From an uncultured Candidatus Actinomarina sp. (GTDB taxonomy: Bacteria > Actinomycetota > Acidimicrobiia > Actinomarinales > Actinomarinaceae): a stretch of DNA of 64,000 bases. This document shows, one piece after another, positions 32,941-63,977 of this stretch. The notes beneath the pieces are model-generated. The model had not been told where the DNA came from. It searched no databases and saw only the letters and a list, made by a program, of their open reading frames with translations. Numbering within the stretch: position 1 is the first letter of the stretch; the number at the start of each line of letters is the position of its first letter. Where the stretch lies: assembly GCA_902555055.1 (NCBI GenBank), contig CACDQN010000001.1, positions 167,535 through 231,534 of the forward strand, read 5' to 3'. A program made the position numbers and the translations under genes.

Positions 32941-33025
32941 ATTGAAATTATAAGTAATTTTATAGAAGATTTATTACAGATTTGCAGTTTCATATTACTA
33001 ATTAATCAATGTATGTTGGTAATTA

Positions 33026-37023: not shown

Positions 37024-37634
37024 GTTGGGATGACAAGCTAATCAAGCAGGCTAAAAAAATAGTTAAAATATATCCACAAAAGAGATCAGCTTTAGGCCCA
37101 CTGTTGCATTTAGCACAGAGTAAAGATGGATACATTTCTGATGATTCAGTATCTGTAATAAGTGAATTAGTTGGCATTACTGAAGTACAAGTCAAGTCAG
37201 TCTCAACTTTCTACTCAATGTATAAACAAGAGCCAACAGGAAAATATTTATTGAGTGTTTGTAAATCTATCTCATGTGAAATTAATAACTCAAATTCAAT
37301 TATTGATGTTGTTAAAGACTTTACTGGTCTTAGTAATAATGAAACAGATGAAGAAGGTTTATTTACTTTCGAAGCAGTTGAGTGTATTGGAGCTTGCGGC
37401 GGAGCCCCAGCAATACAAGTAAATTATGAGACAGTAGAAGGATTATCTACAGAAAATACTTTAAATTTGTGCGAGTGGTTAAAAAATGAAACACCAGATT
37501 TAGTTGTAGCAGATGAATTACAAAATAAATTTGGTGGTACAAAATCATTTGATTGGGCAATATCGGACAATTCAGGAACAACAGGGTCAGTTCCGGGTTT
37601 TCAAACTTTAAATACTACAAAGGATAAAAAGTGA
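37020..37634 (+). CDS. nuoE: NADH-quinone oxidoreductase subunit E
   Basis: 2Fe-2S thioredoxin-like fold with cysteines (CKSISC…CIGACGGAP). Confidence 0.9.
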   Translation: MSWDDKLIKQAKKIVKIYPQKRSALGPLLHLAQSKDGYISDDSVSVISELVGITEVQVKSVSTFYSMYKQEPTGKYLLSVCKSISCEINNSNSIIDVVKDFTGLSNNETDEEGLFTFEAVECIGACGGAPAIQVNYETVEGLSTENTLNLCEWLKNETPDLVVADELQNKFGGTKSFDWAISDNSGTTGSVPGFQTLNTTKDKK

Positions 37635-41232: not shown

Positions 41233-42319
41233 ATTTATTATTGCATTGATAAAAGCAAATATAGTTCTTGGAGTGCTTTTAACAAATACAATACTCTTGA
41301 TATGGTTTGAAAGAAAACTAGTAGCAGGGATGCAATCTCGTGTAGGACCAGATAGAGCTGGACCTTTTGGAATATTGCAAACTGTAGCGGATGCTATCAA
41401 ACTTATGCTTAAAGAACAGATATTACCGCTTAAAGCTGATAGGGCTATGTATCTTCTTGCACCAATTGTCGCTTTAGTACCATCCTTCTTAATTTTTATG
41501 ATTATTCCACTTGGCCCAAATTTAAATATTGAGTTTGGTGGAGAAAATTACATAGTGGAATTTGTAGGAGCAGATCTAAATGTTGGTGTTTTATATTTCC
41601 TAGCTCTATCTTCAATCGCAGTTTATAGTGTTGTGCTAGCGGGTTGGTCCTCAGGTTCAAAATATCCTTTATTAGGAGGTGTAAGAGCTTCTGCGCAAAT
41701 GATTTCTTATGAAGCAGCTATGGGTTTAGCCCTAGTTCCAGTTATTTTATATTCAGGATCACTGTCCTTAGTTGATATTGTTGATAGTCAGTCAGGGAAT
41801 TTATCTAGTTCTATACCAATATTAAATTCAATTGTTTCCTTCATTCCAAAGTGGAATGTATTTCCACAGTTTGTAGCTTTCGGAATATTTTTTATTGCTG
41901 CTGTAGCAGAAGTAAATAGAGCACCATTCGATTTAGTTGAAGCTGAACAAGAGCTAGTTGGAGGCTTTCACACTGAATATTCTGGATTTAGATTTGCGAT
42001 GTTTTTTTTAGCTGAATATATAAATATGTTTAACATGTGTGCAATAACAGCAACATTTTTTTTAGGTGGATGGCTAGGACCTACATTTGAAAATTTCTTA
42101 CCTCCATTTTTGTCTTCTATAATGCCAATAATTTGGCTAGGGGTAAAAACTTTCAGCCTCCTTTTTATTTTTGTATGGATAAGAGCCACACTTCCAAGGC
42201 TTAGATATGATCAGCTAATGGAACTAGGGTGGAAAAGATTAATTCCCGCGTCTTTAGTTTGGTTAATCTTATCTGCAGTTGTTCTTGGCTTGAGAGAATT
42301 TGGACTACCTTGGAGTTAA
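41222..42319 (+). CDS. nuoH: NADH-quinone oxidoreductase subunit H
   Basis: Polytopic. Conserved ERK…QSRVGP and LAEY motifs. Confidence 0.92.
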   Translation: MSTEFIIALIKANIVLGVLLTNTILLIWFERKLVAGMQSRVGPDRAGPFGILQTVADAIKLMLKEQILPLKADRAMYLLAPIVALVPSFLIFMIIPLGPNLNIEFGGENYIVEFVGADLNVGVLYFLALSSIAVYSVVLAGWSSGSKYPLLGGVRASAQMISYEAAMGLALVPVILYSGSLSLVDIVDSQSGNLSSSIPILNSIVSFIPKWNVFPQFVAFGIFFIAAVAEVNRAPFDLVEAEQELVGGFHTEYSGFRFAMFFLAEYINMFNMCAITATFFLGGWLGPTFENFLPPFLSSIMPIIWLGVKTFSLLFIFVWIRATLPRLRYDQLMELGWKRLIPASLVWLILSAVVLGLREFGLPWS

Positions 42320-42322
42320 ATT

Positions 42323-42937
42323 ATGAGTGAAAGTTTTGGTTTATTTAAAGGTTTAAAAGTTACTTTTAAAGAACTTTTTAGAAAATCTGTAACAGATAAG
42401 TACCCAAAAGAATTTAGAGAAAAGCCACAACGATTTCATGGTCGACATGTTTTAAATAAGTATGAAGATGGTATGGAGAAGTGTATTGGTTGCGAACTTT
42501 GTGCTGGTGTTTGTCCTGCTCAATGTATTTACGTTAGAGGTGAAGACAACCCAGAGGACAACCCAGTAAGTCCTGGAGAAAGATACGGTTTTATATATGA
42601 AATCAATATGCTTAGATGTATTTATTGTGCACTTTGTGTAGAAGCATGTCCAACAGAAGCAATAACAATGACATCATTATTTGAAATGAGTGTAGCTAAT
42701 AGGTCTGAAGCAATTTTTGATAAGTCTGTTTTAGTTGTAAACGATGATGGTACACCGAACACACATGAGGAGCAGACAAAACTTACAAATATTAAAGATT
42801 TACAGACATCTGATGGCTGGATGAGAGCAACTTCTCCAAATGGAAATCCAAATTTCGAAAATATTGTGAATTGGTCTGGGTCCCTAGGTGTTGGAAAAAA
42901 AGATCCAGAAAAAGGTCAAACTCTGGAGGAAGAGTAA
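42323..42937 (+). CDS. nuoI: NADH-quinone oxidoreductase subunit I
   Basis: Two 4Fe-4S ferredoxin motifs (CIGCELCAGVCP and CIYCALCVEACP). Confidence 0.93.
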   Translation: MSESFGLFKGLKVTFKELFRKSVTDKYPKEFREKPQRFHGRHVLNKYEDGMEKCIGCELCAGVCPAQCIYVRGEDNPEDNPVSPGERYGFIYEINMLRCIYCALCVEACPTEAITMTSLFEMSVANRSEAIFDKSVLVVNDDGTPNTHEEQTKLTNIKDLQTSDGWMRATSPNGNPNFENIVNWSGSLGVGKKDPEKGQTLEEE

Positions 42938-42938
42938 A

Positions 42939-43466
42939 TTGTTTGAACTCTTAATTTTTTTCCTTCCTGCATCTATCTTGATTATCGGAGCCCTCATAGT
43001 AGTCTTTGCAAAAAACCCTGTTCATAATGCCATGGGCTTAGTTATGACATTAGTTTCACTTGCAATAATTTATATAACTTTAAATGCAACTTTTGTAGCA
43101 ATGGTGCAGATGCTAGTTTACGCAGGCGCAGTTATGACATTATTTCTTTTTGTGATAATGATGATCGGTGTGGACAAAAAAGAACAAACTTCAGATTCAA
43201 TTAAAGGTCAAACTTTTTTAGTAAGTGGAGTTTTCTTAATTCTGATATCCCTGTTGGGTTACGTAGCTGTAAATTCAGAATTTAGTTGGAACCTGTGGTT
43301 TCCAGCGGTTGAATATGTTGTTGAGGGAACACCTCAGTTAATTGCAGGAACACTCTTTACTACTTGGATATTCCCCTTTGAGATCATATCTATCTTGCTG
43401 ATTGTAGCTACTGCTGCAGCAATAGCTTTAGCTTATGATTTAAAAATAAGGAATAAAGATGCTTGA
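42939..43466 (+). CDS. nuoJ: NADH-quinone oxidoreductase subunit J
   Basis: Polytopic. I prefer the TTG at 42939, which lies 8 nt after a GGAGGA SD. The six-frame track starts at a GTG at 42888 with no SD and a 50-nt overlap with nuoI. Confidence 0.85.
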
Positions 43467-43767
43467 AGTTACTACAGATTGGTACTTAACACTAGCTGCA
43501 ATTCTTTTCTCTATTGGATTTTTTGGTATGATGATTCGAAAAAATGCATTAATAATGTTTATGTGCATTGAATTAATGTTAAATGCTGTAAATCTAACTT
43601 TTATTGCTGCATCAAAACACTTTGGTCAGATAGATGGACAAATTGCAGTATTTTTTGTTTTAGTTGTAGCTGCTGCTGAAGTTGTGGTCGGCCTAGCAAT
43701 AATTGTTTCAATATTTAGAAAACAATCCTCAGCTTCCGTTGATGTACTAAATGTCTCAAGAGGATAG
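43459..43767 (+). CDS. nuoK: NADH-quinone oxidoreductase subunit K
   Basis: About 100 aa with 3 TM helices. AAGGA SD. Confidence 0.92.
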
Positions 43768-43769
43768 TT

Positions 43770-45698
43770 TTGGATTTCTTATTTGTGCTTCCAATATTTC
43801 TTCCACTTCTAACCGCTATTTTTTTATTTTTAAATAAAAAAATATTTAATGAGTTAGTTACTAACTTTTTCACATTAAATAGTGCGCTTTTATCATTTGC
43901 AATTTCGTTTTTTGCTTTTGTTACTTTTGCCCTTGATAAATTTAAACCTATAAGCATAACTCTTTATCAATGGACTAGAACACCAGATATTACAATAGGT
44001 TTTACTCTTGATGGCCTATCAGGTGTTATGTTGCTTTTGGTAACCGGTCTTTCATTTGTAATACAACTTTTTTCAACTTCATATATGGAAAAAGATGAAA
44101 AACATAGCAATTATTTTGTGTATTTTAACTTCTTTGTATTTTCCATGTTGCTTTTAGTTATGTCATCAAACTTCTTAGTTATGTTTTTTGGGTGGGAATT
44201 AGTTGGGTTAAGTTCTTACTTATTAATTTCATTTTGGTCTCAAAAACCAGCTGCTGCTAAAGCTGGGAATAAAGCATTTGTTATTAATAGAATTGGAGAC
44301 TTTGGATTTCTGATTGGATTAATGATTGTTTTAAATACATTCAATACTTTTGATTTCTACACAGTCATGCAGAACTCAACCAATGTAAGTGAGAATACTA
44401 TTACAACTATTTCATTATTTTTACTATTAGGAGCTTTTGGAAAGTCTGCTCAATTTCCTTTATTTAGCTGGTTACCTGATGCTATGGAAGGACCTACCCC
44501 AGCTAGTGCTTTAATTCATGCAGCGACGATGGTCACAGCTGGAGTTTTTATGCTTGTACGAATCTCTCCTATGCTCCAACATTCTGTAACTGCGAGCATT
44601 GTAATTATATCTTTCGGCTTACTCACTGCACTAATAGCAGCATTTTCAGCAATGAATCAATATGATATCAAGAAAGTATTAGCTTACTCAACCATCTCAC
44701 AACTTGGCTTTATGTTTATCGCAATAGGAGCAGGTGCATATGTTGCAGCAATTTTTCACCTAGTTACACATGCCTTTTTTAAAGCACTCTTATTCCTAGG
44801 GGCTGGTGCGGTAATTCATTCTATGCATCATGAACAAGATATGAGAAAAATGGGTGGATTAAGAAAAAGAATGCCTATTACTGCTGGAATGATGGGCATT
44901 GGTACTTTAGCTATTTCAGGAATCCCTCCCTTGGCAGGTTTTTGGTCAAAAGACGAAATACTTGCATCAGTATTTGCTAAGGCAGGTATGGCAAACGAAT
45001 TGGTATTTTCTATAATGTATTATCTATTTTGGTCATTAACACTTGGCGCAGCTTTACTTACAGCTTTTTATATGGGTAGGCACTGGTTATTAATTTTTGA
45101 GAAGGATAATGGAATAGATCATTCAGAAGTTCAAGAGGCACCAAAAGCTATGACAAGACCATTAATCCTTTTAGGAATATTCTCAATTTTTATTGGCTTT
45201 ATTAACACACCTTTTTTTCATGGTTTAGAAAAAGTTCTTCATGAAACGCTTGAAAATGTTGAAGTAACTCATCTTCCTGAGGGCATAGCACTAGTTGTAT
45301 TAGCTGTTCTCTCTATAGGAGCAGGATTTACAGGACTAATTATTGCTTTTCTTATATTTGGATTTGAATTACATAAAAGAATTAATTTAGAAAAATTTAA
45401 ACTAGAGTCTCCAATAAATCTTGTAAAAGATCTTTCAAGCAATGTCCTGTATTTAAATAAATTTGGAAATGTATTTTTTGTTTCAGGGATGAAAAACTTT
45501 TCAAGAAAAGTAGCTGTCATTGTTGATGGGTTGGTAATAGATGGATCTGTTAATTTTATTTCTAGTGCATTTGGAAAAACTTCAAGAGTTACCTCAGCAA
45601 CACAAACAGGATTAGTTAGAAATTATGTTGTATATTTCGGCTTATTTTTAATATTGTTAATATCACTTTTTATTTTTACTCCCTTGGTGGCACAATGA
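43770..45698 (+). CDS. nuoL: NADH-quinone oxidoreductase subunit L
   Basis: 642 aa antiporter-like subunit with a long C-terminal amphipathic arm. Confidence 0.92.
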   Translation: MDFLFVLPIFLPLLTAIFLFLNKKIFNELVTNFFTLNSALLSFAISFFAFVTFALDKFKPISITLYQWTRTPDITIGFTLDGLSGVMLLLVTGLSFVIQLFSTSYMEKDEKHSNYFVYFNFFVFSMLLLVMSSNFLVMFFGWELVGLSSYLLISFWSQKPAAAKAGNKAFVINRIGDFGFLIGLMIVLNTFNTFDFYTVMQNSTNVSENTITTISLFLLLGAFGKSAQFPLFSWLPDAMEGPTPASALIHAATMVTAGVFMLVRISPMLQHSVTASIVIISFGLLTALIAAFSAMNQYDIKKVLAYSTISQLGFMFIAIGAGAYVAAIFHLVTHAFFKALLFLGAGAVIHSMHHEQDMRKMGGLRKRMPITAGMMGIGTLAISGIPPLAGFWSKDEILASVFAKAGMANELVFSIMYYLFWSLTLGAALLTAFYMGRHWLLIFEKDNGIDHSEVQEAPKAMTRPLILLGIFSIFIGFINTPFFHGLEKVLHETLENVEVTHLPEGIALVVLAVLSIGAGFTGLIIAFLIFGFELHKRINLEKFKLESPINLVKDLSSNVLYLNKFGNVFFVSGMKNFSRKVAVIVDGLVIDGSVNFISSAFGKTSRVTSATQTGLVRNYVVYFGLFLILLISLFIFTPLVAQ

Positions 45699-47182
45699 CT
45701 GGAATTATTCTTGCTCTCTTATTGGTACCACTTTTTAGTGCTCTTCTAGTATTTTCCATTCCAAATACTCGAAAAGAGCTTTTTAGACCTATTGGAATTG
45801 TGTTCTCTCTAATTACGTTTACACAATCTATGTACATCCTGTTTAGTGATTATTCAAAATCAGATTTCCAAATTTTATTTAGGTTTGAGTGGATTCAGGT
45901 TTATGGTTTAGAAATAAACCTTGGCATATCTGGAATGTCAACTTTACTTTTACTATTGAGCTCTTTACTTGTATTACTTTCTTTACTCTCTATTGGTAAG
46001 GACCATAGTGAGAGCAAAGGGTTCATTGGATCTATTTTAACTTTACATTTTGCAATTAATGGAGTTTTTATTAGTGGAGATTTAATTTCATTATTTATTT
46101 TCTTTGAAGCACTTTTGATACCTATGTATTTCCTAATGGGGATTTGGGGTGGTGATAATAGAAGATATGCAACTATTAAATTTATTTTATATACAGTCTT
46201 TGGTTCAATATTTATCTTTATAGGTACTGTTTACACAGCTGTCATAAGCTATGGAGTTAATGCAAGATTAGCAGTTGATTTTGAGACACTTTCTACTCTT
46301 CAAATAAGCGCTTCGCAATCTAAGACTTTATTTCTATTATTTACTTTTGGCTTTCTCATTAAAGTTCCTATTTTTCCTCTACATACATGGCTACCGGATG
46401 CACACGTTGAAGCTCCAACTGCAGGAAGTATTTTATTAGCAGGTATTTTATTAAAAGTTGGGGCCTATGGAATTCTTAGAGTTTCAATACCTTTCTTTAC
46501 TGAAGGTTTCCTTGAGTATAAAAATTTAGTCGCAGTGTTGTCTGTAATTGGCATTATATATGGTGCTATAGTTGCTATAGCTCAAATAGATATCAAAAAA
46601 CTTATTGCATATTCCTCAATTAGTCATATGGGATATGTAATGCTTGGTATATCAGCTGGAGAATTTTTAAGTATAGAGGGAGCAATTATTCAGATGATAA
46701 ATCATGGAATAACCGCTGGTGCTTTATTTATGTTGGTTGGCTTTATATACGAAAGAAGACATACAAGAAATATAAGCTCTTTTGGAGGAGTTAAGATATC
46801 AATGCCTAGATATGCTGCAATCTTTCTCTTCACATCTTTTGCATCGATAGGTTTACCAGGATTGAATGGTTTCGTAGGAGAGTTTATGATTTTGATGGGA
46901 AGCTATAATTCCTATAAAGTTTTAACTTCGATAGCTGCTTTCGGCGTTGTCCTAGCTGCAATTTATATGCTGTGGACATATCAAAGAGTATTTACAGGAC
47001 CTCTATCAAATGAAGAGAATAAAAATTTACAAGACTTGAATTTAAGAGAAACGGTATCTATTTTCCCTTTGGTTTTACTAATGTTGTTTATAGGGATTTA
47101 TCCAAGTTATATTGAGAGCTTTGTTATTCAAGAAGCAGGAAATTTAAGTGAAACAATATCATTATTCAGGAGTACAAAATGA
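45695..47182 (+). CDS. nuoM: NADH-quinone oxidoreductase subunit M
   Basis: Antiporter-like subunit. ATGA overlap with nuoL. Confidence 0.92.
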   Translation: MTGIILALLLVPLFSALLVFSIPNTRKELFRPIGIVFSLITFTQSMYILFSDYSKSDFQILFRFEWIQVYGLEINLGISGMSTLLLLLSSLLVLLSLLSIGKDHSESKGFIGSILTLHFAINGVFISGDLISLFIFFEALLIPMYFLMGIWGGDNRRYATIKFILYTVFGSIFIFIGTVYTAVISYGVNARLAVDFETLSTLQISASQSKTLFLLFTFGFLIKVPIFPLHTWLPDAHVEAPTAGSILLAGILLKVGAYGILRVSIPFFTEGFLEYKNLVAVLSVIGIIYGAIVAIAQIDIKKLIAYSSISHMGYVMLGISAGEFLSIEGAIIQMINHGITAGALFMLVGFIYERRHTRNISSFGGVKISMPRYAAIFLFTSFASIGLPGLNGFVGEFMILMGSYNSYKVLTSIAAFGVVLAAIYMLWTYQRVFTGPLSNEENKNLQDLNLRETVSIFPLVLLMLFIGIYPSYIESFVIQEAGNLSETISLFRSTK

Positions 47183-48651
47183 CCGTAATTTCTGATATCT
47201 TAGGCTTTAACTTTGTTGTTATTGGTCCAACCTTAACTCTTCTTGCAACAGCTTTGATACTCCTTTTTGTAACAATTACTATTTCAACACCCACATTTGT
47301 AAAAAAATATGTTACTTTATTTGGTATTTTGTCTACTGTCTTTGCTGTATTTCTAAAATTTGGCTTATTTCTCTCAGATGGCGTCTCTTCTTATTTTTCT
47401 GAAAAAATTCTCTTAGATGAATTTGCTCTTGTAGGTAATGTATTAGTGGTTTTAGTTTTGCTGTTTACTTTTAATTCTTTTTGGAACACATCTTCTCAAA
47501 TAGATAACAAAACAACAGAAGCGTTAATTCTAATTTTAATGTCCGCCTCAGGATTTTTACTGATGGTGGATTCTGAAAATTTTATTATGTTATTTATAGG
47601 TCTAGAGATTGGCTCCATAAGCCTCTATGCTCTTGCTGGTTTAAATAGAGGAGATCAGCTTAGTAACGAGGCATCGTTGAAATATTTTCTTTTGGGGTCA
47701 CTAGCATCCTGTATATTAATTTATGGTATCGCATTGGTTTATGTCTCCTTATCTATAAGTGGTGTTTATGAAACTAGCATAGCAATAAGCTTTATTGGCC
47801 CTGAAAATGTTCCACTAACAAGTCTTATTGGGCTGATATTCATAATTGTTGGATTGTTGTTCAAGGTTGCAGCAGCTCCATTTCAAGCATGGGCTCCTGA
47901 TGTTTACCAAGGTTCTCCAACTGGTTATGTGGGGTACATGGCCTCAGTAGCAAAAGTTTCATCATTTATTGTTTTAGCTAGACTTTCAGCGGTGTCGTTA
48001 ACTTTTATAATTGATAAATTCAATTTATTTTTTACTGCTGTCATAATACTTTCCGTATTATTAGGTGCATTATTTGCAACTAATCAATCTGATCTCAAGA
48101 GATTGATAGCTTACAGTGGAGTTATACAATCTGGATTTATTCTTTCTGGTATATCGTTTGGAGTATATGGAATAAGTGCATCCATTTTCTATCTCACAAC
48201 ATACATCATTCAGCTTATTGGCATTTTCACAATTTTCTCAATAATTAGTGGTCAACTTAGTTCAAATTTTGCAATAAGTAATTTATCAGGACTATTCAAG
48301 GAAAATAAGTTTTTAACTATTACTTTTTCTATATTTATGCTTGGGATTGCAGGGCTACCATTGACGAGTGGTTTTGTATCGAAGTTTATTCTAATTACAA
48401 ACTTGTGGTCCTATGAAAAATATCTATTAGTTACAGTATTGATGCTTTCTACTGTTGCTGGATTTTATTTTTACTTAAAACCTATTTGGGTTGCTGCAGT
48501 GGAAAAAACAGATAATACTATTGAGAAAATTAAAATACAAAATTCTGATAAATTGTTAATTTCCACACTTGCCTTTCTAACTATTTATTTAGGACTATTA
48601 CCTAACACACTTGTAAATATTTCTCGTTGGATGGTAGAAAACTACCTTTAA
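47179..48651 (+). CDS. nuoN: NADH-quinone oxidoreductase subunit N
   Basis: Antiporter-like subunit. ATGA overlap with nuoM. Confidence 0.92.
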   Translation: MTVISDILGFNFVVIGPTLTLLATALILLFVTITISTPTFVKKYVTLFGILSTVFAVFLKFGLFLSDGVSSYFSEKILLDEFALVGNVLVVLVLLFTFNSFWNTSSQIDNKTTEALILILMSASGFLLMVDSENFIMLFIGLEIGSISLYALAGLNRGDQLSNEASLKYFLLGSLASCILIYGIALVYVSLSISGVYETSIAISFIGPENVPLTSLIGLIFIIVGLLFKVAAAPFQAWAPDVYQGSPTGYVGYMASVAKVSSFIVLARLSAVSLTFIIDKFNLFFTAVIILSVLLGALFATNQSDLKRLIAYSGVIQSGFILSGISFGVYGISASIFYLTTYIIQLIGIFTIFSIISGQLSSNFAISNLSGLFKENKFLTITFSIFMLGIAGLPLTSGFVSKFILITNLWSYEKYLLVTVLMLSTVAGFYFYLKPIWVAAVEKTDNTIEKIKIQNSDKLLISTLAFLTIYLGLLPNTLVNISRWMVENYL

Positions 48652-54591: not shown

Positions 54592-55278
54592 TTATCCAAC
54601 ATAGACTCTTTCAGCAATAAATTGATCTAAACCGAAAAACTGATCTTTAGATATACTCACGGTAATTGAGTACTCGTTGGTGTCAGAAATATAAATTTTA
54701 TTTCCAGGTAAGATTTTATTTTTTTGAAGAAATGATATTACTGAAGAATCTTTTTTTAGTTCTTCTGAAATTTTAACAATATTGTATTTTTTATTGACTT
54801 TAACATCAAGCAATCTTTTCATTGGGCCTTCAAAATAACCGGAATATGGAATAGGATTTCCAAATATGCCAGTAGTAGGGTTTCCTAAAATTTTCAACAT
54901 TGCGTCTTCAGTTACTGGACTCAATACGTTTTCCCATTTCTTAGTTTCTTTGTATACCTGATCCCAAGGAAGGTCTAAAATTTCAGACAAAAATCTCTCG
55001 ATAATCCTACGCCTTCTAGATATCATCTTTGCTAAATAGGAGCCCTTTTCCGTAAGCATTAGATCATCACTTAATTCTATTAGGCCACTATTTTGCATTC
55101 TTCCAATAACCTGGGAAACGTTAGCTCTACTGACACCTAGCCAATCAGCAACACGTGTTTGCTTTACTTCTATTCCAACTTCGCTTAAATGATATATTGC
55201 TTCAGCATGGGAATAAAAAGAGTTTGGTAACTTCTCAATTTCATTTTGTGGAAATACATTAGGATTTTCGTTATTCAT
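54592..55278 (-). CDS. DtxR/IdeR-family metal-dependent transcriptional regulator with a C-terminal FeoA/SH3-like domain
   Basis: N-terminal HTH (VADWLGVSRANVSQVIGRMQNSGLIE), a dimerisation/metal-binding region, and a C-terminal SH3-like domain; 228 aa. Confidence 0.8.
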   Translation of the reverse strand: MNNENPNVFPQNEIEKLPNSFYSHAEAIYHLSEVGIEVKQTRVADWLGVSRANVSQVIGRMQNSGLIELSDDLMLTEKGSYLAKMISRRRRIIERFLSEILDLPWDQVYKETKKWENVLSPVTEDAMLKILGNPTTGIFGNPIPYSGYFEGPMKRLLDVKVNKKYNIVKISEELKKDSSVISFLQKNKILPGNKIYISDTNEYSITVSISKDQFFGLDQFIAERVYVG

Positions 55279-55557: not shown

Positions 55558-56577
55558 TCAACTGCTTCTCACTAGTTCTTCTAAAAGTTTAATTGTTTCC
55601 TCTGAGTCGTTTAAGCAAGGTATGTAAGTCATATTTTTACCTCCGGCGTTAAAAAATGTTTCTCGACCACGAATATCAATCTCTTCTAAAGTCTCTAAGC
55701 AATCAGATATAAAGGATGGACACAGAATTGCTATATTGTCTTTTCCTTCTGTAGGAAGCTCGGCTAGTCTCTTATCAGTAAATGGAGTAAGCCACCCTGG
55801 TCCAAGTCTAGATTGGTAAGCAACCTCCCACTGACCTTCTTTTAAACCTAGTTTTTCAGCTGTCAAACTTGAAGCAATTCTTGTATGTGACCTGTAACAG
55901 TCTTTTGATCCATCATTTTTCACTTCACAACAACTATTTGTTGAGAAACAATGCTCTCCAGTTTCATCAGTTTTTTTAGCTTGCCTCCTTGGAATCCCAT
56001 GATAACTAAATACAATTTTGTCATAAGAATCAGATTCTAAGTAAGGTTTAATGGTATTACTCACTGCACTTATATAATTTTCATTGTTGTAAAAAGGTTT
56101 AACAAAAGTTAATTCAAAATCATTAGCAATACGATTTGCAACAGCTAATGTCTCCAACTCTGTAGTGACTGTTGTTGCCATCGCATTATGGGGATAAAGA
56201 GAAACCACATAAATTCTTTTGATATCTTTATTTTTAAAATTTGTTAAGGCTTTTTCTATACTTGGTTCCTCATATCTCATTGCATATTCAACATTCCAAC
56301 CAGTTTTACTAGATAATTTTTTAGCTATTTTATCTGTTGAAATAATTAAGGGAGAACCTTCAGCTGTCCATATTTTTTCATATGCTTCTAGTGTATTCTT
56401 GGGCCTGAAGGGGAGTATAAATAAGCGTAAAATTAATTGTTGTAAAAATTTTGGTAGGTCTACTACATTATCATCAGATAAAAAAACTTTTAAGTAATGC
56501 CTGACAGATTTTTTAGTAAGTTCCTTAGGTGATCCTAAATTAATTAAAAGAACACCTTCATTTTTATTTGGAGACAT
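55558..56577 (-). CDS. hemH: ferrochelatase (coproporphyrin type expected in Actinobacteria) with an internal 4-Cys insert
   Basis: N-terminal VLLINLGSP. Conserved active-site region …SFISDCLETLEEI and HGIPRR. Insert GEHCFSTNSCCEVKNDGSKDC. Confidence 0.9.
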   Translation of the reverse strand: MSPNKNEGVLLINLGSPKELTKKSVRHYLKVFLSDDNVVDLPKFLQQLILRLFILPFRPKNTLEAYEKIWTAEGSPLIISTDKIAKKLSSKTGWNVEYAMRYEEPSIEKALTNFKNKDIKRIYVVSLYPHNAMATTVTTELETLAVANRIANDFELTFVKPFYNNENYISAVSNTIKPYLESDSYDKIVFSYHGIPRRQAKKTDETGEHCFSTNSCCEVKNDGSKDCYRSHTRIASSLTAEKLGLKEGQWEVAYQSRLGPGWLTPFTDKRLAELPTEGKDNIAILCPSFISDCLETLEEIDIRGRETFFNAGGKNMTYIPCLNDSEETIKLLEELVRSS

Positions 56578-56670
56578 AGATAGAAGAATAAAAGATTAAT
56601 AATTTAACCTTAAATTATTAGGCAAAAAATTTTCAAAATTAATTACCATTAAGTTTTTTTGTTAAGTACT

Positions 56671-56714
56671 ATTAACAAAGTTAATTATAAACATTAACAA
56701 AGTTAATTATAAAC
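56671..56714. repeat. exact tandem duplication of a 22-bp unit (ATTAACAAAGTTAATTATAAAC) containing the palindrome TTAAC-aaa-GTTAA, in the hemH/fbpA divergent region
   Basis: Visible directly in the sequence. Ends 10 nt before the fbpA ATG. Confidence 0.65.
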
Positions 56715-56724
56715 AAAGGTTGAA

Positions 56725-57825
56725 ATGAATAAAAAAATTACGATTATTTTGATTGCTTTCATGATGGTTTTGACTGCTTGTTCCCCCACAGCGGGAGAGC
56801 AGGGACCAGCAGGTGAGCAAGGTCCAGCAGGAGAAGTATCACAAGAAGCTATTGAAGCTGCAGTTGAAGCAGCATTGGCAGAGACAGAAGCTGAAGTTGG
56901 CGGAACACTTGTCATTTATAGCGGTAGAAAAGAAAGTTTAGTAGCAGATATTATTGCAGAATTTGCTGCAACCTCAGGAGTAGAAGTTGAAGTAAGGTAT
57001 GCAAAGAGTGCTGCTTTAGCTGGAACACTTTCACTTGAGGGTGCTATAAGTCCAGCTGATGTTTTCTTCTCACAAGATCCGGTAAGCCTTGGTGTAGTAG
57101 CCAAAGAAGGTCTTTTCGATAGACTACCAGCTGATGTTCTAGATAACGTACCAGCTTGGGCAGTTGATAGTAATGGTTTCTGGGTAGGTACATCTGGTAG
57201 GTCTAGATCACTTGTTGTTGACACAAGAGATGTTACAGACGCAGAATTGCCTGGAGACATTTATGGTCTTGCAGATGAAAAATTTAGAAACAGACTAGGA
57301 CTTGCTCCTACTAACTCATCATTCATAGCAATGGTTGCATGCATGATTGAGTCAGATGGGGAAGAAAAAGTTCTTGACTGGTTAACTACAATAAACGGTC
57401 TTGGATATGGAGAATATCCAAAGAACTCACCTCAAGTAGCAGCAGCTGCAGCTGGTGAGTTAGATATTGGAATGATCAATCACTATTACACATTAAGAGT
57501 ATTGGCTGAAAATGGAGACGAGCCAATTAAGAATGTGTATTTAGATGGTGGATGTGGTGCAATGGTTATGCCTGCAGGTGCTGGAATTTTGTCCTCAAGC
57601 CAAAATAAACCAGCAGCGATGGCATTTATTGAATTCTTACATTCAAAAGCAGCTCAAGAGACATTTACAAATACAGTATACGAGTTCCCTCTTGTTGAAG
57701 GTATTGAGCCAAATGCTTTGTTACCAGACATTAATAGTTTGAACTCTCCTTCAAACTTAAACTGGTCAGCGCTAGCTTTATGGCAAGAAAAAGCTGTCGA
57801 ATTGATTGCTCAGGCAGGATACTAG
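56725..57825 (+). CDS. fbpA: Fe(III) ABC transporter substrate-binding lipoprotein (FbpA/AfuA family)
   Basis: Lipobox LTAC. Motifs SPADVFFSQD, TSGRSRSLVVDTR, INHYY, SSQNK and a C-terminal AQAGY recall FbpA. Confidence 0.85.
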   Translation: MNKKITIILIAFMMVLTACSPTAGEQGPAGEQGPAGEVSQEAIEAAVEAALAETEAEVGGTLVIYSGRKESLVADIIAEFAATSGVEVEVRYAKSAALAGTLSLEGAISPADVFFSQDPVSLGVVAKEGLFDRLPADVLDNVPAWAVDSNGFWVGTSGRSRSLVVDTRDVTDAELPGDIYGLADEKFRNRLGLAPTNSSFIAMVACMIESDGEEKVLDWLTTINGLGYGEYPKNSPQVAAAAAGELDIGMINHYYTLRVLAENGDEPIKNVYLDGGCGAMVMPAGAGILSSSQNKPAAMAFIEFLHSKAAQETFTNTVYEFPLVEGIEPNALLPDINSLNSPSNLNWSALALWQEKAVELIAQAGY

Positions 57826-57851: not shown

Positions 57852-57893
57852 AAAAAATTCTGGTCAGAGAAATCTGACCAGAATTTTTTCTTT
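57852..57893. terminator. strong rho-independent terminator/attenuator between fbpA and fbpB (11-bp perfect stem, GAAA loop, A- and T-runs on both sides)
   Basis: AAAAAA-TTCTGGTCAGA-GAAA-TCTGACCAGAA-TTTTTTCTTTT. Confidence 0.75.
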
Positions 57894-57926: not shown

Positions 57927-59483
57927 GTGAAAATACCAAAGATTCTTTTAACAACAAATGTTTTTATCTTAACAATATTTTTAATGCCAATATTTTATAT
58001 GTTTTGGCGATTTGCTAATTTTTCAAGAAATATATCTGCTTTTCTAAAATCATGGGATGTTTCTTCTCTTTTGTTTAATACTTTAACTTTATTTTTAGCT
58101 GTAGTTCTAACTAGTCTTCTTATAGGTTTACTTGTTTCTATTTTTACTGTTAGGTATGAACTCCCTGCTTCAAAAATACTATTTTCTCTAACTATTCTTC
58201 CCCTGGTTATTCCTTCATATATAGGTGCTTTAACCTATGTTTCAGCCTTTTCCCCTAGAGGATTATTTGTAGATATATTTTCTAATTTTGGTCTTAATGA
58301 AATTTCAGGTATTGATGGTTTTGTTGGAAGTTGGATTGTTCTAACACTATTTACCTATCCATATGTTCAGCTAGTTTGCAGTAGTGCACTCAGAAACCTA
58401 GATTCGACAGTTGAGGATGCTGCGAGATCTCTTGGCGTAAAAAAAGTTAAAATGTATACAAGCGTTGTTCTACCAAGATTAAAAAAACCAATTATTTATT
58501 CATCTCTTCTTGTTGGGCTATATGTCATATCTGACTTTGGCGCTGTTTCTTTAATGAAGTATGGAACAATGACAAAGGCAATATATTCTTATTATGTTAT
58601 AAACATCAATGGTGATCCAGTAATTTTCTATTCAACTATATTGATTTTTCTTGCTTTAATTATAAGTTTCGCACAGAGAGGAAGCGATATTTCTAGATCA
58701 GCAAAAGTTTCCGGCACACCAAGAGAAATGGAAAAAATAAAACTTTCAAAAAAACCAAAAATTTTGGTATTAGCTTTCTTTTTTGTTTTAATATTTTTTA
58801 GCTTATTCGTTCCAGTAAGTGTTTTAGGTTACTGGTTGTTTCGTGGGTTGGCTCAGGGCAATAATGTAAGTGGTGCTTTATCTGGAATACTAGGTTCATT
58901 AACTGCGGCTACAGTTACATCGATACTTGCAATGGTTATAGCGACACCTATTGTGGTAATGATTTCTCAGTATCGTTCTAAGTTCGGTGATTTATTTGAA
59001 AAAGTCACCCTTACTTTGTATGGCTTGCCACACATAGCAGTCGGAATCTCAATGTTGTTTATAACAATTAAAATTTTTCCCTCAATTTATCAAACATTTA
59101 TAACTCTTATAATCTCGTACTTAATAGTTTTTTTACCACAAGCTGTGGGTGGAGGACAAGCTTCTATGGAGCAAGTTAAGTTATCTTATATTGAGGCAAG
59201 CTCTGGTCTTGGGTTTTCTAAAATTGATACTTTTTTTAAAATAACTTTTCCCTTAATTTATCGAGGCCTTTTAGCAGGAGCTGCATTAGTATTTTTATCT
59301 ACTATGAAAGAATTACCTCAAACCTTACTGCTGAGACCAACTGGATTTAGTACTATGGCTGTTGATATATGGTCGAATGCGTCTGAAGCTTTATTTACTC
59401 AGGCAGCATTTTCTGCTTTTATATTATTAGCTATTAGTGCATTTCCTACATATATACTTAGTACAAGGAATTTAACAAACTAA
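57927..59483 (+). CDS. fbpB: Fe(III) ABC transporter permease (FbpB-type, duplicated permease domains)
   Basis: 518 aa with about 12 TM helices and two EAA-like loops. GTG start. Confidence 0.85.
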   Translation: MKIPKILLTTNVFILTIFLMPIFYMFWRFANFSRNISAFLKSWDVSSLLFNTLTLFLAVVLTSLLIGLLVSIFTVRYELPASKILFSLTILPLVIPSYIGALTYVSAFSPRGLFVDIFSNFGLNEISGIDGFVGSWIVLTLFTYPYVQLVCSSALRNLDSTVEDAARSLGVKKVKMYTSVVLPRLKKPIIYSSLLVGLYVISDFGAVSLMKYGTMTKAIYSYYVININGDPVIFYSTILIFLALIISFAQRGSDISRSAKVSGTPREMEKIKLSKKPKILVLAFFFVLIFFSLFVPVSVLGYWLFRGLAQGNNVSGALSGILGSLTAATVTSILAMVIATPIVVMISQYRSKFGDLFEKVTLTLYGLPHIAVGISMLFITIKIFPSIYQTFITLIISYLIVFLPQAVGGGQASMEQVKLSYIEASSGLGFSKIDTFFKITFPLIYRGLLAGAALVFLSTMKELPQTLLLRPTGFSTMAVDIWSNASEALFTQAAFSAFILLAISAFPTYILSTRNLTN

Positions 59484-60508
59484 TGGCATTTGAAAATTTA
59501 ATTATTAGAGCAAGATCTGTAACAAAATCATATGGACTCGAAAGTGTATTGTCTGATTTTAATTTAGATGTTTGGAATGGTTCTATAGTTGGAATTTTAG
59601 GTATGTCTGGTTCTGGTAAAACAACAGCTCTTAGATTAATTGCAGGTTTTGAAAAGCCTGATTCAGGGATAATTGAAATGAGAAGTGAGATTATTTCTAG
59701 TGAAGATACTTATTTACCCCCTGAACAAAGAAATGTTGGTATGGTTTTCCAAGATTATGCGCTATTTCCTCATTTAAATGTTGAGAAAAATATATCTTTT
59801 GGACTCAACGCATTTGAAATGAAGTCAGGAAGATTAGAAGAAGTTATATCAATGTGTAATTTAGAGGAATATAGAAAGAAGTTTCCACAAGAGCTTTCTG
59901 GAGGCCAGCAACAAAGAGTTGCGCTTGCCCGTGCTTTAGCTCCCAAACCCGAAGTAATTTTGCTTGATGAACCCTTTACAAGTCTTGATGCACATATGGC
60001 TAGGGACTTAAGAGAAGAAGTCGTTATGCTTTTAAAACAAACTGAAACTACTGCAATAATAGTTACACATGATCAAGAGGAAGCCTTATCTGTATGTGAT
60101 GTTGTAAGTGTGCTTGAAAATGGAAAAGTTATTCAAAGTGCTACTCCTCAGGAAATATATTTAAATCCGGTAAGTCAAACAGTTGCTAATTCAGTAGGAG
60201 ACCCAAACATTCTTAAAGGTTTTTCTACAAATGGAAGAGTAGAAACCTCTCTTGGCTCATTTGTATCTGCTTACAATGGAGCTCTAGATGTTTCTATTAG
60301 GCCAGAATGTATTGAGCTAACCCTCGACACTGAAGGAAGCTATGTAGTTACAGAGTGTACCTTTTATGGTCATGACCAAGTAATATCTTTTAGTAACAAC
60401 AAAGGCGAAATTTTTAGAGCAAGATCTCTTCCAAATACAATTTATGAATCTGGCGATAAAGTAACTGTCAATATATCTGAAGTTACTACTTTTCCGTCAA
60501 AGGTTTGA
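59483..60508 (+). CDS. fbpC: Fe(III)/polyamine-type ABC transporter ATP-binding protein (FbpC-type) with a C-terminal TOBE-like domain
   Basis: Walker A GMSGSGKTT, signature LSGGQQQRVALAR, Walker B ILLDEP. Confidence 0.9.
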   Translation: MAFENLIIRARSVTKSYGLESVLSDFNLDVWNGSIVGILGMSGSGKTTALRLIAGFEKPDSGIIEMRSEIISSEDTYLPPEQRNVGMVFQDYALFPHLNVEKNISFGLNAFEMKSGRLEEVISMCNLEEYRKKFPQELSGGQQQRVALARALAPKPEVILLDEPFTSLDAHMARDLREEVVMLLKQTETTAIIVTHDQEEALSVCDVVSVLENGKVIQSATPQEIYLNPVSQTVANSVGDPNILKGFSTNGRVETSLGSFVSAYNGALDVSIRPECIELTLDTEGSYVVTECTFYGHDQVISFSNNKGEIFRARSLPNTIYESGDKVTVNISEVTTFPSKV

Positions 60509-60694
60509 TTTAATATAAGCAACTCTACCAGCCAAAGATTGAAGCTCAATCTCTAGTTCTGAGAGCTTTCCTGATGCTCGTGAAAAATCTTCGCCTGCTA
60601 TATACTCTCGTGAATTAGCAAGAGACTTTATAAGTGTTTCTAAATCAAACATAATTGATTCTATTTCAGAGAAAATTAGTTGTTTATCCATCAT
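60497..60694 (-). CDS. hypothetical 65-aa helical/coiled-coil protein (doubtful)
   Basis: The ORF is convergent with fbpC and overlaps its end by 12 nt. No motifs. Confidence 0.2.
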   Translation of the reverse strand: MMDKQLIFSEIESIMFDLETLIKSLANSREYIAGEDFSRASGKLSELEIELQSLAGRVAYIKSNL

Positions 60695-60748: not shown

Positions 60749-61552
60749 GTGGATTTAAAAATTAAAAAACTTAAAAGGTTCAATATCATTATGGGAACAG
60801 TGCACCTTTTACAGGGTGGTTTGTTATTTTGGCTTGGAACAGTTGTAAATTCAGATTTTGTTGTACCAATTACCTTAACTCAACTTGTTGGAGTTGGCTC
60901 ACCCGAAGACCCTTCAAGCTTTGCTTTAATTCCTGAATTAGAAATTTGGACTGAAGTTACAAACTTTGGACCAGCCGTAGCTACTTTCTTACTTGCATCA
61001 GCTGTTGCACACTATTTGATATCTGGACCTTTTTATAACAAATATAAAGAAGACTTATCAAAAGGAATTAACAAAGTTAGATGGATTGAATATTCAATAA
61101 GTGCATCAGTTATGATTGTCTTAATTGCTTTGCTTGTTGGAATTTATGATATTTGGGCTTTGGCTGGAATATTCTTCATGAATGCTGCCATGTGTTGGTT
61201 TGGCTGGATGATGGAAGTTCATAATCAATATACTGAAAAAGTTGATTGGACAAGTTATATTATGGGTTGCCTCGTGGGTGTTGCTCCATGGATATTTATA
61301 TTTATAAACTTAATCGGAGATGGAGTGGCAACTGACTCTAACCCTCAAGGAGTTCCTCAATTTGTAGTATGGATATTTGTGAGTATATTTTTGTTTTTCA
61401 ATACATTTTCTATAAACATGATTCTCCAATACAAACAAGTTGGAAAATGGAAAGATTACTTATATGGTGAGAGAGCTTATATCTGGCTTAGCTTACTAGC
61501 TAAAACATGTCTTGCGTGGCAAGTATTTTTTGGTACTTATCAACCAAATTAA
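60749..61552 (+). CDS. heliorhodopsin (7-TM retinal protein with inverted topology)
   Basis: GTG start 4-5 nt after an AAAGGGG SD. Hallmark residues are present: His in TM1 (GTVHLLQ), His in TM2 (AVAHYLISG), the Glu counterion segment RWIEYSISASVMIVLIAL, and the TM7 Schiff-base Lys in GERAYIWLSLLAKTCLAWQVFFGT. Confidence 0.85.
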   Translation: MDLKIKKLKRFNIIMGTVHLLQGGLLFWLGTVVNSDFVVPITLTQLVGVGSPEDPSSFALIPELEIWTEVTNFGPAVATFLLASAVAHYLISGPFYNKYKEDLSKGINKVRWIEYSISASVMIVLIALLVGIYDIWALAGIFFMNAAMCWFGWMMEVHNQYTEKVDWTSYIMGCLVGVAPWIFIFINLIGDGVATDSNPQGVPQFVVWIFVSIFLFFNTFSINMILQYKQVGKWKDYLYGERAYIWLSLLAKTCLAWQVFFGTYQPN

Positions 61553-61628
61553 AAAACTTACTTAATTCTTCTACCAAAGAAAACAATTAATAGAAATATT
61601 AGAAGTAGCCCAATATAGGACAGTGCCA

Positions 61629-62423
61629 TTATTTTTTATTTCTTAATTTTCTTATGACAAAAAATATAAATCCGATTGGTATAAGGATGATTGAGATTGA
61701 TACAGTAATTCCAATAATATTTTCAGTCCAACCTATAGCTCTTTGTACATAATAATTCCAAGAAAAGAGTGACACACCAGATCCTTCTCTAATTTCTAAT
61801 GTGAGCGTAGAAAAGGATGTAGAATTTTCATAAAATTCTTTTTGTCCCTGGAGCATCTCGATGTCTTGATTTATATACCTTAATTGAGACTGAACTTGAA
61901 GTTTGTCAGAGGTAGAAGTTGCTTCATTTTTAATATCTTGTAATGCTTCTTTTTCACCATATAAAGATTTAAGTCTTGAATCAATATCAACAACATACCG
62001 AGTTACATCATTTGCATTTGAACTAATGCTCGTAAAACTAGATAGTTCTTCAACTTCAGAAAGAAAAGCTTCAAAATCCTCAGCAGGAATGTTTACGGTC
62101 AAGCTATAACTTTGAAGTCCTTGATAATTAGTAGAAAGATATGTATTTGAGATATTTCCTTCGTAACTTTTTACCATATTTTCTACACTTTTAATTGTGC
62201 TATTAAAATTTGACGAGCTTACATCAGTGCTGGCATATGCAGTTTTGATAATATAATCTCCCTGGGAAGTTGAAGAATTTGAAATTGATTCTGACCTACT
62301 TAAAGACATATCCTCAACCCCTCCACCTATAAATGGTTCTGGGTAGCCCTCTGATTGAATTCCATTATTACTGCAACTAATAAAAACAAAAATAAAAACA
62401 AACAACAATAGCTTTTTACTCAT
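61629..62423 (-). CDS. DUF4349-like lipoprotein (signal/lipobox, coiled-coil region, C-terminal TM anchor)
   Basis: Lipobox FISC, heptad-like central region, and a C-terminal TM helix plus a basic tail (FVIRKLRNKK). Confidence 0.5.
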   Translation of the reverse strand: MSKKLLLFVFIFVFISCSNNGIQSEGYPEPFIGGGVEDMSLSRSESISNSSTSQGDYIIKTAYASTDVSSSNFNSTIKSVENMVKSYEGNISNTYLSTNYQGLQSYSLTVNIPAEDFEAFLSEVEELSSFTSISSNANDVTRYVVDIDSRLKSLYGEKEALQDIKNEATSTSDKLQVQSQLRYINQDIEMLQGQKEFYENSTSFSTLTLEIREGSGVSLFSWNYYVQRAIGWTENIIGITVSISIILIPIGFIFFVIRKLRNKK

Positions 62424-62442: not shown

Positions 62443-63531
62443 TCAAAAATTATGAATCTCTATAATAGGAATTTTTAATTCTTCTTCAGTTAGCCCACCG
62501 TGGTAGCCCTTTAGTTCAGCTTGTAAATGCTTTGGGTAGATTATATGATTTTGCTCAAGAAGGAAACAATAATCTGGATAAAGTGTTTCAATATAACTAT
62601 TACCAGGTTCTTTTAAGATATGTTTCAAATCAGATCTACTAATAAGTTCACCAGGTATGTTTGAAAAAACCTTTTCAACTTCACCTCTAGTTCCATTTAT
62701 ATAAACTGATCGTTGGTCTCCATATATCTGAATACTATTTTCATAAGATAAAGTATGCCTATTCTCAACTGGAATATTACATAATCCATGATCAGCTGAA
62801 ATTATTGTTGTAGTTTTCTTGTTACTTGCTTGAGAAATCTTTTCAACCGCTTCTTCAAATTTTTTTATTTCAAGTTCCCACTCAGCAGAATAGACTCCAA
62901 AAATATGTCCAGCAATATCAACATTTGGATAGTAAATAAAATTAAATCTATTCTCTAAAAAGGATGCTTCTGAAAGCATCTCTATTAAGTTCTCTATCGT
63001 TTTATAAGGAACCGTACTACTTTTTTCATATAGGAAGTTTGATAATGAACTTCCTACTAAGTTTTCTGGTTGAAAGTTAGCAACATGTGTATTGAATAAT
63101 TTAAATTTTTTCCAAATAGATTCTTGATTTTTAAAATGATCATTATTTAAAAGTAATTCGTTTTCACTGTTCCAGTTAAGTGCATTAATCAGACCAAAAT
63201 TACTTTTATCATACATGTAGTAACCAATAATTCCGTGGTCAATTGGGTGACTCATCATTGCAAAAGTAGTAAGTGCAACATTCGTTGAAGAAGGAAATGT
63301 AGTATTAATTATTTTTTTTATATTGTCTTTTAGGGAAGTTTCAAGTGACATTAAATTTTCATACCCAAGTCCATCAGCAAGAATAAAATTAATTGTTTCT
63401 GCCTCTTTAATCTTCTCAGTTAATAGATTCTCAACAGAATTTAATTTCCTTTCGTCATTTATGACGGTACTAAAAACCTCTTCTGAAAGCTGTAAAAGAC
63501 TTGCTTCGTTTAAAAAATTTTTGTTAATCAC
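62443..63531 (-). CDS. alkaline phosphatase superfamily protein (nucleotide pyrophosphatase/phosphodiesterase-like)
   Basis: Metal-ligand motifs ILADGLGYE (N-terminal) and ISADHGL. Confidence 0.55.
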   Translation of the reverse strand: MINKNFLNEASLLQLSEEVFSTVINDERKLNSVENLLTEKIKEAETINFILADGLGYENLMSLETSLKDNIKKIINTTFPSSTNVALTTFAMMSHPIDHGIIGYYMYDKSNFGLINALNWNSENELLLNNDHFKNQESIWKKFKLFNTHVANFQPENLVGSSLSNFLYEKSSTVPYKTIENLIEMLSEASFLENRFNFIYYPNVDIAGHIFGVYSAEWELEIKKFEEAVEKISQASNKKTTTIISADHGLCNIPVENRHTLSYENSIQIYGDQRSVYINGTRGEVEKVFSNIPGELISRSDLKHILKEPGNSYIETLYPDYCFLLEQNHIIYPKHLQAELKGYHGGLTEEELKIPIIEIHNF

Positions 63532-63611: not shown

Positions 63612-63977
63612 ATGATTTCTTATTTTCAAGATTATGTGACCATAGCAGCAGTGCTAGGATTTGGACTTTTTTTGGTCGTGCTCTTACTTGGTGTAGCATC
63701 TGTCCTTAGGCCTAATAAGCCTTATGCAGAAAAACTTCAAACTTATGAATGTGGAGTAGATCCAGTAGGTTCTGGGTGGAGCCAAACATATGTAAGATAT
63801 TATATATTTGGTTTACTATTTGTAATTTTTGATGTTGAAGCAGTATTTATATTTCCATGGGCTATCAACTTGGAAAAACTTGGCTATTTTGGATTAATTG
63901 AGATGTTTGTTTTTATATTCATCTTATTAATTGGTCTCATATATGCCATTAGAAAGGATGTACTCAAATGGGAATAG
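63612..63977 (+). CDS. second NuoA-family protein (NADH-quinone oxidoreductase subunit A paralogue)
   Basis: 121 aa with 3 TM helices and YECG…FDVE motifs. Only about 40% identical by eye to the nuoA at 34371. Confidence 0.85.
   Translation: MISYFQDYVTIAAVLGFGLFLVVLLLGVASVLRPNKPYAEKLQTYECGVDPVGSGWSQTYVRYYIFGLLFVIFDVEAVFIFPWAINLEKLGYFGLIEMFVFIFILLIGLIYAIRKDVLKWE

Follow-up and report, generated by a model that had tools for sequence, protein, structure and literature searches.

A Candidatus Actinomarina heliorhodopsin gene beside a ferric-uptake transporter, flanked by small genes on the opposite strand

Introduction

Heliorhodopsins (HeRs) are abundant in sunlit waters, and Actinomarina makes up as much as ~4% of photic-zone prokaryotes. 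The bacterial and archaeal HeRs that have been tested do not pump ions and form long-lived photointermediates, and three HeRs modulate the proteins to which they are bound; the partners now known are glutamine synthetase, photolyase and an ATP-binding cassette (ABC) exporter (Cho et al. 2024, Nat Commun). Here we analyse the HeR gene that lies beside afuABC, the genes of a ferric-uptake ABC transporter, in 64,000 nucleotides of an uncultured Candidatus Actinomarina sp. (assembly GCA_902555055.1, contig CACDQN010000001.1, positions 167,535 to 231,534 of the forward strand). This whole stretch is called the window below, and all coordinates refer to it. A sequence-only reading of the window, made by a model, had described HeR function as largely unresolved, a statement that the three known partners make partly outdated.

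The locus has been described before. Lopez-Perez et al. (2020, mSystems; PMC7771536) reported the layout of the HeR locus in Actinomarinales, the lack of retinal synthesis genes in this order, and a photolyase gene that adjoins its type-1 rhodopsin. The supplementary text of a preprint by Bulzu et al. (2021) lists the locus as cluster C11 and proposes that it forms a single transcription unit; the preprint claims conservation around HeR for genes of the same strand only. Kovalev et al. (2020, supporting information) noted nuo clusters on either side of HeR. The layout of a 14-subunit nuo operon (nuo14), a DtxR-like gene, hemH, afuABC, HeR and an 11-subunit nuo operon (nuo11) is, between these three sources, already known, and the sequence-only reading, which pointed out the placement beside an iron module, had been anticipated in print at least three times. 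Our additions are two unreported small genes on the opposite strand, a candidate operator and a hairpin of afuA, contigs that lack HeR, and a regulator whose metal sites are degenerate.

Results

A bona fide heliorhodopsin

60749..61552, plus strand: heliorhodopsin HeR, 267 aa, GTG start, Schiff-base Lys K252, counterion E114

The gene begins with a GTG codon, preceded at 5-8 nt by the ribosome-binding site AAAGGGG, and the protein that it encodes in this Candidatus Actinomarina is a genuine heliorhodopsin, as the sequence-only reading had proposed. Pfam, NCBIfam and solved structures all bear this out. The protein matched the Heliorhodopsin family PF18761 over profile positions 1-241 of 242 (8.4e-88, 294.2 bits, cutoff 26.7) and the NCBIfam HeR equivalog NF038020 with 309.4 bits (cutoff 100), in both cases over the full length. 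At E≤0.01 PF18761 was the sole Pfam family found, with no match to the type-1 rhodopsin family Bac_rhodopsin (PF01036). The solved structures that it matched were heliorhodopsins only, namely TaHeR (6is6, 1e-66) and 48C12 (6su3, 3e-56).

We aligned the protein with TaHeR, 48C12 and 80 homologs (54 from Actinomarinales and 26 distant HeRs). All the diagnostic residues that the sequence-only reading had listed were present, and they were invariant in the 80 homologs. H19 and H88 correspond to H23 and H80 of 48C12. The block in transmembrane helix (TM) 3 reads R111-W112-I113-E114-Y115-S116, whose R111, W112 and E114 align with R104, W105 and E107 (the counterion) of 48C12. The second block, G240-E241-R242-A243-Y244-I245, places E241 at the position of 48C12 E230; it is followed by S248 (48C12 S237) and by K252 in TM7, which aligns with the Schiff-base lysine K241. 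E156, N218, Q227, Y237, E241 and S248 are kept in the alignment too. The N-terminus and the TM2-3, TM4-5 and TM6-7 loops together hold 15 lysines and arginines, and the opposite face holds 0. From this positive-inside count the protein is predicted to have its N-terminus inside, as the sequence-only reading had expected, that is, the inverted topology that defines the heliorhodopsin family.

The gene is under strong constraint. Its ratio of non-synonymous to synonymous polymorphism (pN/pS) of 0.09 is the lowest of the neighbourhood, compared with 0.18-0.25 for AfuA, AfuB and AfuC. Within the order, conservation peaks in TM2, TM3, TM6 and TM7, the helices of the retinal pocket, and the cytoplasmic loops showed no exceptional conservation, so that they give no pointer to a partner interface. 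We also considered whether HeR might be a decaying relic in an organism that does not make retinal; we rejected this on account of the pN/pS of 0.09 and the invariant K252.

A scan of one genome per species yielded 54 HeR loci from single-amplified and metagenome-assembled genomes of Candidatus Actinomarina or Actinomarinales, with 84-99% amino acid identity. The closest HeR (99% amino acid identity) is found in AG-333-M17, a single-amplified genome. The next-nearest HeRs, from archaea, candidate phyla radiation bacteria, Firmicutes and other Actinomycetota, are 43-52% identical. The window has a GC content of 33%, and both this and its gene content, with a complete 14-subunit nuo operon and a second nuoA at 63612, agree with Actinomarina.

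Opposite-strand genes on both sides of HeR

The following features bear on whether HeR belongs to the iron-uptake genes:

56725..57825, plus strand: afuA/fbpA, substrate-binding protein (SBP) lipoprotein of the ferric-binding-protein family, lipobox LTAC
57852..57889, plus strand: hairpin with a 17-bp stem and a T-run in the afuA-afuB gap, terminator- or attenuator-like
57927..59483, plus strand: afuB, fused double-domain ABC importer permease, 518 aa, two BPD_transp_1 stretches
59483..60508, plus strand: afuC, ABC ATPase with a TOBE_2 domain (Pfam/NCBIfam)
60497..60694, minus strand: sORF65, soluble helical hairpin of 64/65 aa, convergent with afuC and divergent from HeR
61558..61629, minus strand: mini23, single-TM peptide of 23 aa, MALSYIGLLLIFLLIVFFGRRIK, convergent with HeR
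61629..62423, minus strand: DUF4349 lipoprotein, variably present among relatives
62443..63531, minus strand: PDE, phosphodiesterase/alkaline-phosphatase superfamily, head of the minus-strand array PDE-(DUF4349)-mini23

The gap between afuC and HeR is ~240 bp (227-251 bp over the loci), in a genome whose median spacer is 3 bp, and in 53 of the 53 loci that cover it the gap holds an intact sORF65 on the opposite strand. The 3' end of sORF65 overlaps the afuC stop by 12 bp in the window and by 9-12 bp in all loci. Its start faces that of HeR, head to head, at a distance of 54 bp (~50-60 bp in most loci). The sequence-only reading had noted a convergent 65-codon open reading frame (ORF) abutting HeR; the frame is indeed convergent with afuC, but with respect to HeR it is divergent. 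On the other side, between HeR and the DUF4349 gene, lies mini23, which that reading had overlooked. Its stop is 5 bp from that of HeR in the window (1-8 bp across loci), and its ATG overlaps the stop codon of the DUF4349 gene (TAATG). With a strict filter, mini23 was found at constant length in 48 of the 53 loci. HeR is thus boxed in on either side by conserved genes of the minus strand. The view that conservation around HeR is limited to genes of its own strand (Bulzu et al. 2021) does not hold, being contradicted by sORF65, mini23 and PDE.

By its pattern of variation, sORF65 is a genuine gene under purifying selection: it keeps a constant 64-aa core in all the loci that cover the gap, and its pN/pS of 0.27 is similar to those of AfuB, AfuC and the DtxR-like regulator. 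An AlphaFold2 model (mean predicted local distance difference test score, pLDDT, 96) folds it into a two-helix hairpin, with helices at residues 4-33 and 37-63. A search against Pfam at E≤10 returned only sub-threshold coiled-coil noise, and Foldseek found no match to the model in the PDB at E≤0.001. A profile search of 1.84 billion representatives retrieved 15 cluster representatives of the family and two repetitive coiled-coil proteins. The family is tiny, specific to Actinomarinales and without known relatives. Neither sORF65-like nor mini23-like ORFs were found near the 26 distant HeRs.

This geometry differs from that of known HeR-partner operons: HeR is co-directional with afuABC, but the 227-251 bp that separate it from afuC contain a gene of the opposite strand, and a hairpin follows afuA. 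A transcript started at the afuA promoter could reach HeR only by crossing this hairpin and traversing sORF65 in the antisense direction. Judging from the arrangement of the genes, HeR is most likely transcribed on its own.

Loci without HeR and without the usual afu genes

Two short contigs from different samples, L081 (1-1239) and L082 (1-582), both of 33% GC and taken to come from a related lineage, carry the corresponding site with no HeR. Their order is PDE, a low-molecular-weight phosphatase gene on the other strand, mini23, an 8-bp spacer, a small ORF that is a divergent homolog of sORF65 (P0073), and a convergent afuC. This layout implies that sORF65 and mini23 belong to one minus-strand array, and that HeR was gained or lost as a single-gene insertion or deletion. 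In search of further HeR-less loci, we scanned metagenomes with the sORF family alone as bait. This gave 53 loci, 51 of which carry HeR; one of the others is truncated and one (L123) looks chimeric. The empty site is therefore documented by L081 and L082 only. As a separate observation, ~6 kb with a GC content of 20% run in frame into the C-terminal part of the sORF in L123 (1-6622), beyond which afuC lies; this contig is probably a chimeric assembly.

Outside the order the linkage was not seen: afuA and afuB are missing from the surroundings of all 26 distant HeR loci. Within the order, five loci (L022-L025 and L052) have neither the DtxR-like gene nor hemH nor the operator described below, and their AfuA and AfuB are 48-65% identical to those of the window. 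Their HeR is 92-96% and their thymidine kinase ~90% identical to the window's, which suggests that the 5' part of the afu cluster in these loci has been replaced or evolves fast. The opposite-strand genes on both sides, the lack of a shared operator (see below), the empty-site contigs and the restriction of the linkage to one highly syntenic order argue against membership of HeR in the iron module.

The transporter and other neighbours

The best matches of AfuA among solved structures (7w3w 6e-62, 3wae 5e-47, 1d9y 5e-42, and on to ~1e-19) are all ferric-binding proteins (FbpA, HitA, SfuA, FutA). Y254 and Y255 of AfuA correspond to the Tyr-Tyr pair Y195/Y196 of Neisseria FbpA. Where FbpA has the ligands His9 and Glu57, AfuA has K69 and Q117, a feature that it shares with its nearest solved homologs, which belong to the Tyr type. 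That the SBP is a lipoprotein is expected for a monoderm. Among the NCBIfam equivalogs, the ferric ATPase model NF008513 gave 243 bits (cutoff 496), and none of the models for SBPs or permeases reached its cutoff. At the level of protein families, Fe3+ is the well-founded presumed substrate of afuABC.

Further genes of the neighbourhood are:

34371..48651, plus strand: full 14-subunit nuo operon, including NuoE, NuoF and NuoG
54592..55278, minus strand: DtxR-family regulator with non-canonical metal sites (PF01325 and PF02742)
55558..56577, minus strand: ferrochelatase hemH, variably present among relatives
63612..63977, plus strand: nuoA of the second (11-subunit) complex I operon, an operon described in the literature

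The neighbours listed by the sequence-only reading (fbpABC, the DUF4349 gene, a DtxR-family gene and ferrochelatase) were all located as it had them. The nuoA product of the second operon, NuoA2, has a pN/pS of 0.135. Annotation of all ORFs of at least 100 aa in the window agreed with that reading that no retinal synthesis gene is present, as none has a Blh, CrtB, CrtI or CrtY domain. Nor did this set include any of the known types of HeR partner (glutamine synthetase, photolyase, MerR, TerC). Just upstream of the 14-subunit nuo operon, at 32275-34291, we noted a Rex-type redox repressor (CoA_binding and Put_DNA-bind_N domains) and a flavin adenine dinucleotide (FAD) protein resembling geranylgeranyl reductase. 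The FAD protein is not a carotenoid cyclase, as its weak match to Lycopene_cycl spans the FAD-binding motif only.

Candidate control elements of afuABC

56649..56706, strand not assigned: operator-like array upstream of afuA, with TTAAG-N7-GTTAA at 56649-56665 and TTAAC-N3-GTTAA at 56672-56684 and 56694-56706

Comparison of loci L001-L054 showed that afuA is preceded, at 50-65 bp, by the palindrome TTAAC-N7-GTTAA, downstream of which lies a third half-site; the N7 palindrome of the window is one mismatch away from it. The exact sequence occurs in 43 loci that have the DtxR-like gene and in 0 of the 5 loci that do not. It was never found in the spacer between sORF65 and HeR in the loci compared, and this spacer shows little conservation apart from the ribosome-binding site. 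We had also considered TTAAC-N3-GTTAA as the operator. Both of its copies lie within a 22-bp tandem duplication private to the window and, as the exact motif is otherwise confined to a few close relatives, it was superseded by the order-wide N7 palindrome. The candidate operator differs in both sequence and spacing from the 19-bp iron box. A second copy of TTAAC-N7-GTTAA was observed 21 bp from the regulator gene in five loci (L003-5, L020 and L054).

Of 53 loci, 47 keep the hairpin after afuA, and its stem shows compensatory changes. It is probably an internal terminator or attenuator, which would give an excess of the SBP over the permease and the ATPase.

The regulator has the domain architecture of its family (helix-turn-helix followed by a metal-binding and dimerisation domain) and matches IdeR (1fx7, 1.4e-27), and its equivalog score was 110 bits against a cutoff of 290. 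We compared it at the canonical DtxR/IdeR ligands M10, C102, E105 and H106, and H79, E83 and H98. Five of these seven are replaced in the window (M10S, H79R, H98Y, C102K and H106N), and E105 and E83 are kept. Among 44 Actinomarinales homologs, H98Y is found in all and H106N in 43, H79 is kept in 42, and positions 10 (S/T/K) and 102 (S/K) are never canonical. The label 'DtxR/IdeR-type', given by the sequence-only reading, is therefore apt for the domains and the IdeR match but not for the iron ligands, most of which are replaced, and from its residues the metal or iron specificity of the regulator appears uncertain.

Discussion

We consider it fairly probable that this HeR is an independently transcribed sensory or regulatory protein that uses scavenged retinal and modulates a partner, and that its position beside afuABC is a matter of inherited gene order. 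In this account HeR would bind all-trans retinal at K252, with E114 as the counterion; the retinal would be taken up from seawater, since genes for its synthesis are missing from the order. Light would isomerise the retinal and produce a long-lived signalling state, which would alter the Lys/Arg-rich cytoplasmic face and thereby modulate a partner protein. Such modulation is inferred by analogy with the precedents of glutamine synthetase, photolyase and OmrDE, the ABC exporter bound by OcHeR. The adjacency is best read as a lineage-specific gene order, passed on vertically in a streamlined genome of high synteny, and not as membership in an iron module. It probably dates from the insertion of a single gene into the PDE-mini23-sORF65 array.

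Several observations weigh against this reading. Throughout Actinomarinales HeR adjoins afuABC (54 loci from genomes and 51 from metagenomes), and in a genome of 1.1 Mb such adjacency could itself reflect selection. All four genes lie on the same strand, we saw no terminator in the gap from afuC to HeR, and read-through is possible; a single transcription unit was proposed by Bulzu et al. (2021, preprint), and an interaction between an HeR and an ABC transporter has been shown experimentally (Cho et al. 2024, Nat Commun). The empty site rests on two short contigs without taxonomic placement. A sigma-70 scan of 54-64 kb found 46 sites where 43 were expected from shuffles, and is uninformative in DNA of 33% GC; a promoter specific to HeR, and with it independent transcription, is therefore deduced from the gene geometry.

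The alternative closest to the iron genes is a binding of HeR to the AfuB/AfuC importer in the membrane, through which light would increase or decrease the import of Fe3+; this would match uptake to the daytime photochemical availability of iron or limit Fenton damage. The precedent is OcHeR, which stimulates OmrDE, whose ABC transporter genes lie upstream of its own (Cho et al. 2024, Nat Commun), and the idea fits the invariant same-strand adjacency across the order and the K/R-rich cytoplasmic loops of HeR. These loops are, however, not unusually conserved, and OmrDE is a heterodimeric exporter, an ABC transporter of another architecture. Nor is the pair operonic in the way of known HeR-partner pairs, since the 240-bp gap holds a conserved gene in antisense orientation, and no operator is common to HeR and afuA. 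The two also part ways in evolution: AfuA and AfuB are replaced or strongly diverged in L022-L025 and L052 with HeR unchanged, afuC is present without HeR in L081 and L082, and the afu neighbours are absent from all other sampled HeR lineages. We regard such gating as unlikely. A variant in which HeR, although transcribed separately, is kept beside afuABC because its binding to AfuB/AfuC makes ferric uptake light-dependent strikes us as slightly less likely still; if true, it would be the first rhodopsin to gate the import of a nutrient metal, in one of the most abundant photoheterotrophs of the ocean.

The proposal of one plus-strand unit that runs from afuABC through HeR into the 11-subunit nuo operon (Bulzu et al. 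2021), with HeR as a light switch for complex I and energy metabolism, draws on the finding that HeR always has a nuo cluster on either side (Lopez-Perez et al. 2020, PMC7771536; Bulzu et al. 2021; Kovalev et al. 2020), which we confirm, and on the strong conservation that NuoA2 shares with HeR. It is hard to reconcile with the ~2 kb of minus-strand genes (mini23, DUF4349 and PDE) between HeR and nuoA2, of which PDE and mini23 are kept throughout the order, or with sORF65, which parts afuC from HeR, and we think it improbable. HeR might instead act by itself, as a light-gated proton pathway or as a light-driven reductant of carbonate or nitrate in the Schiff-base cavity. Viral HeRs are cited as proton transporters in Cho et al. 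(2024), anion binding and reduction were proposed by Kovalev et al. (2020), and the polar-cavity residues E156, N218, Q227, Y237 and E241 are conserved. These residues are invariant in all HeRs and so do not discriminate between functions, no site for a redox cofactor is evident in HeR, and the nearest bacterial and archaeal HeRs, TaHeR and 48C12, do not transport ions according to the literature (Cho et al. 2024), which makes a transporter or enzyme very improbable. The small genes sORF65 and mini23, both specific to Actinomarinales, flank HeR in nearly every locus and could encode its dedicated accessory or transducer proteins. They persist side by side in the HeR-less contigs, as parts of the PDE-mini23-sORF65 array that HeR interrupts, and have no counterparts near the 26 distant HeRs; such a role is, to our mind, the least probable of all.

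A link to iron that was both novel and functional would have connected light sensing with the acquisition of iron in the open ocean. The main addition made here is instead a negative one, namely concrete reasons against reading the HeR neighbourhood as an operon. The analysis also defines elements that can be tested: the candidate afuA operator, the degenerate DtxR-family regulator, two unannotated micro-genes, the probable internal attenuator and the empty-site lineage.

Among known systems, the published Actinomarinales locus shares the organism group, the gene order and the lack of retinal synthesis genes with the window, and differs from it in nothing essential. The glutamine synthetase and photolyase pairs (Cho 2022; Shim 2022, as cited in Cho et al. 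2024) would share the proposed mechanism, in which a light-activated HeR binds and modulates an enzyme; neither of those genes is in the window. OcHeR-OmrDE is similar in that the HeR gene lies downstream of same-strand ABC transporter genes and the cytoplasmic loops are rich in K/R. OmrDE, however, is a heterodimeric multidrug exporter co-transcribed with helR over short gaps, whereas the transporter of the window is an SBP-dependent Fe3+ importer, parted from HeR by the opposite-strand gene in the 240-bp gap. That importer shares with FbpABC, HitABC, SfuABC and AfuABC the homology of its SBP, the Tyr-Tyr pair, the fused double-domain permease and the TOBE ATPase; its SBP has K69 and Q117 in place of the FbpA ligands His9 and Glu57, as do 7w3w and Thermus FbpA. 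Finally, TaHeR (6is6) and 48C12 (6su3) are ~50% identical to the HeR of the window or less, and the HeR of the window has longer extracellular TM1-TM2 and TM5-TM6 loops, whereas the counterion, the Schiff-base lysine, the histidine pair and the cavity residues are identical in all three, and the topology, with the N-terminus inside, would be the same.

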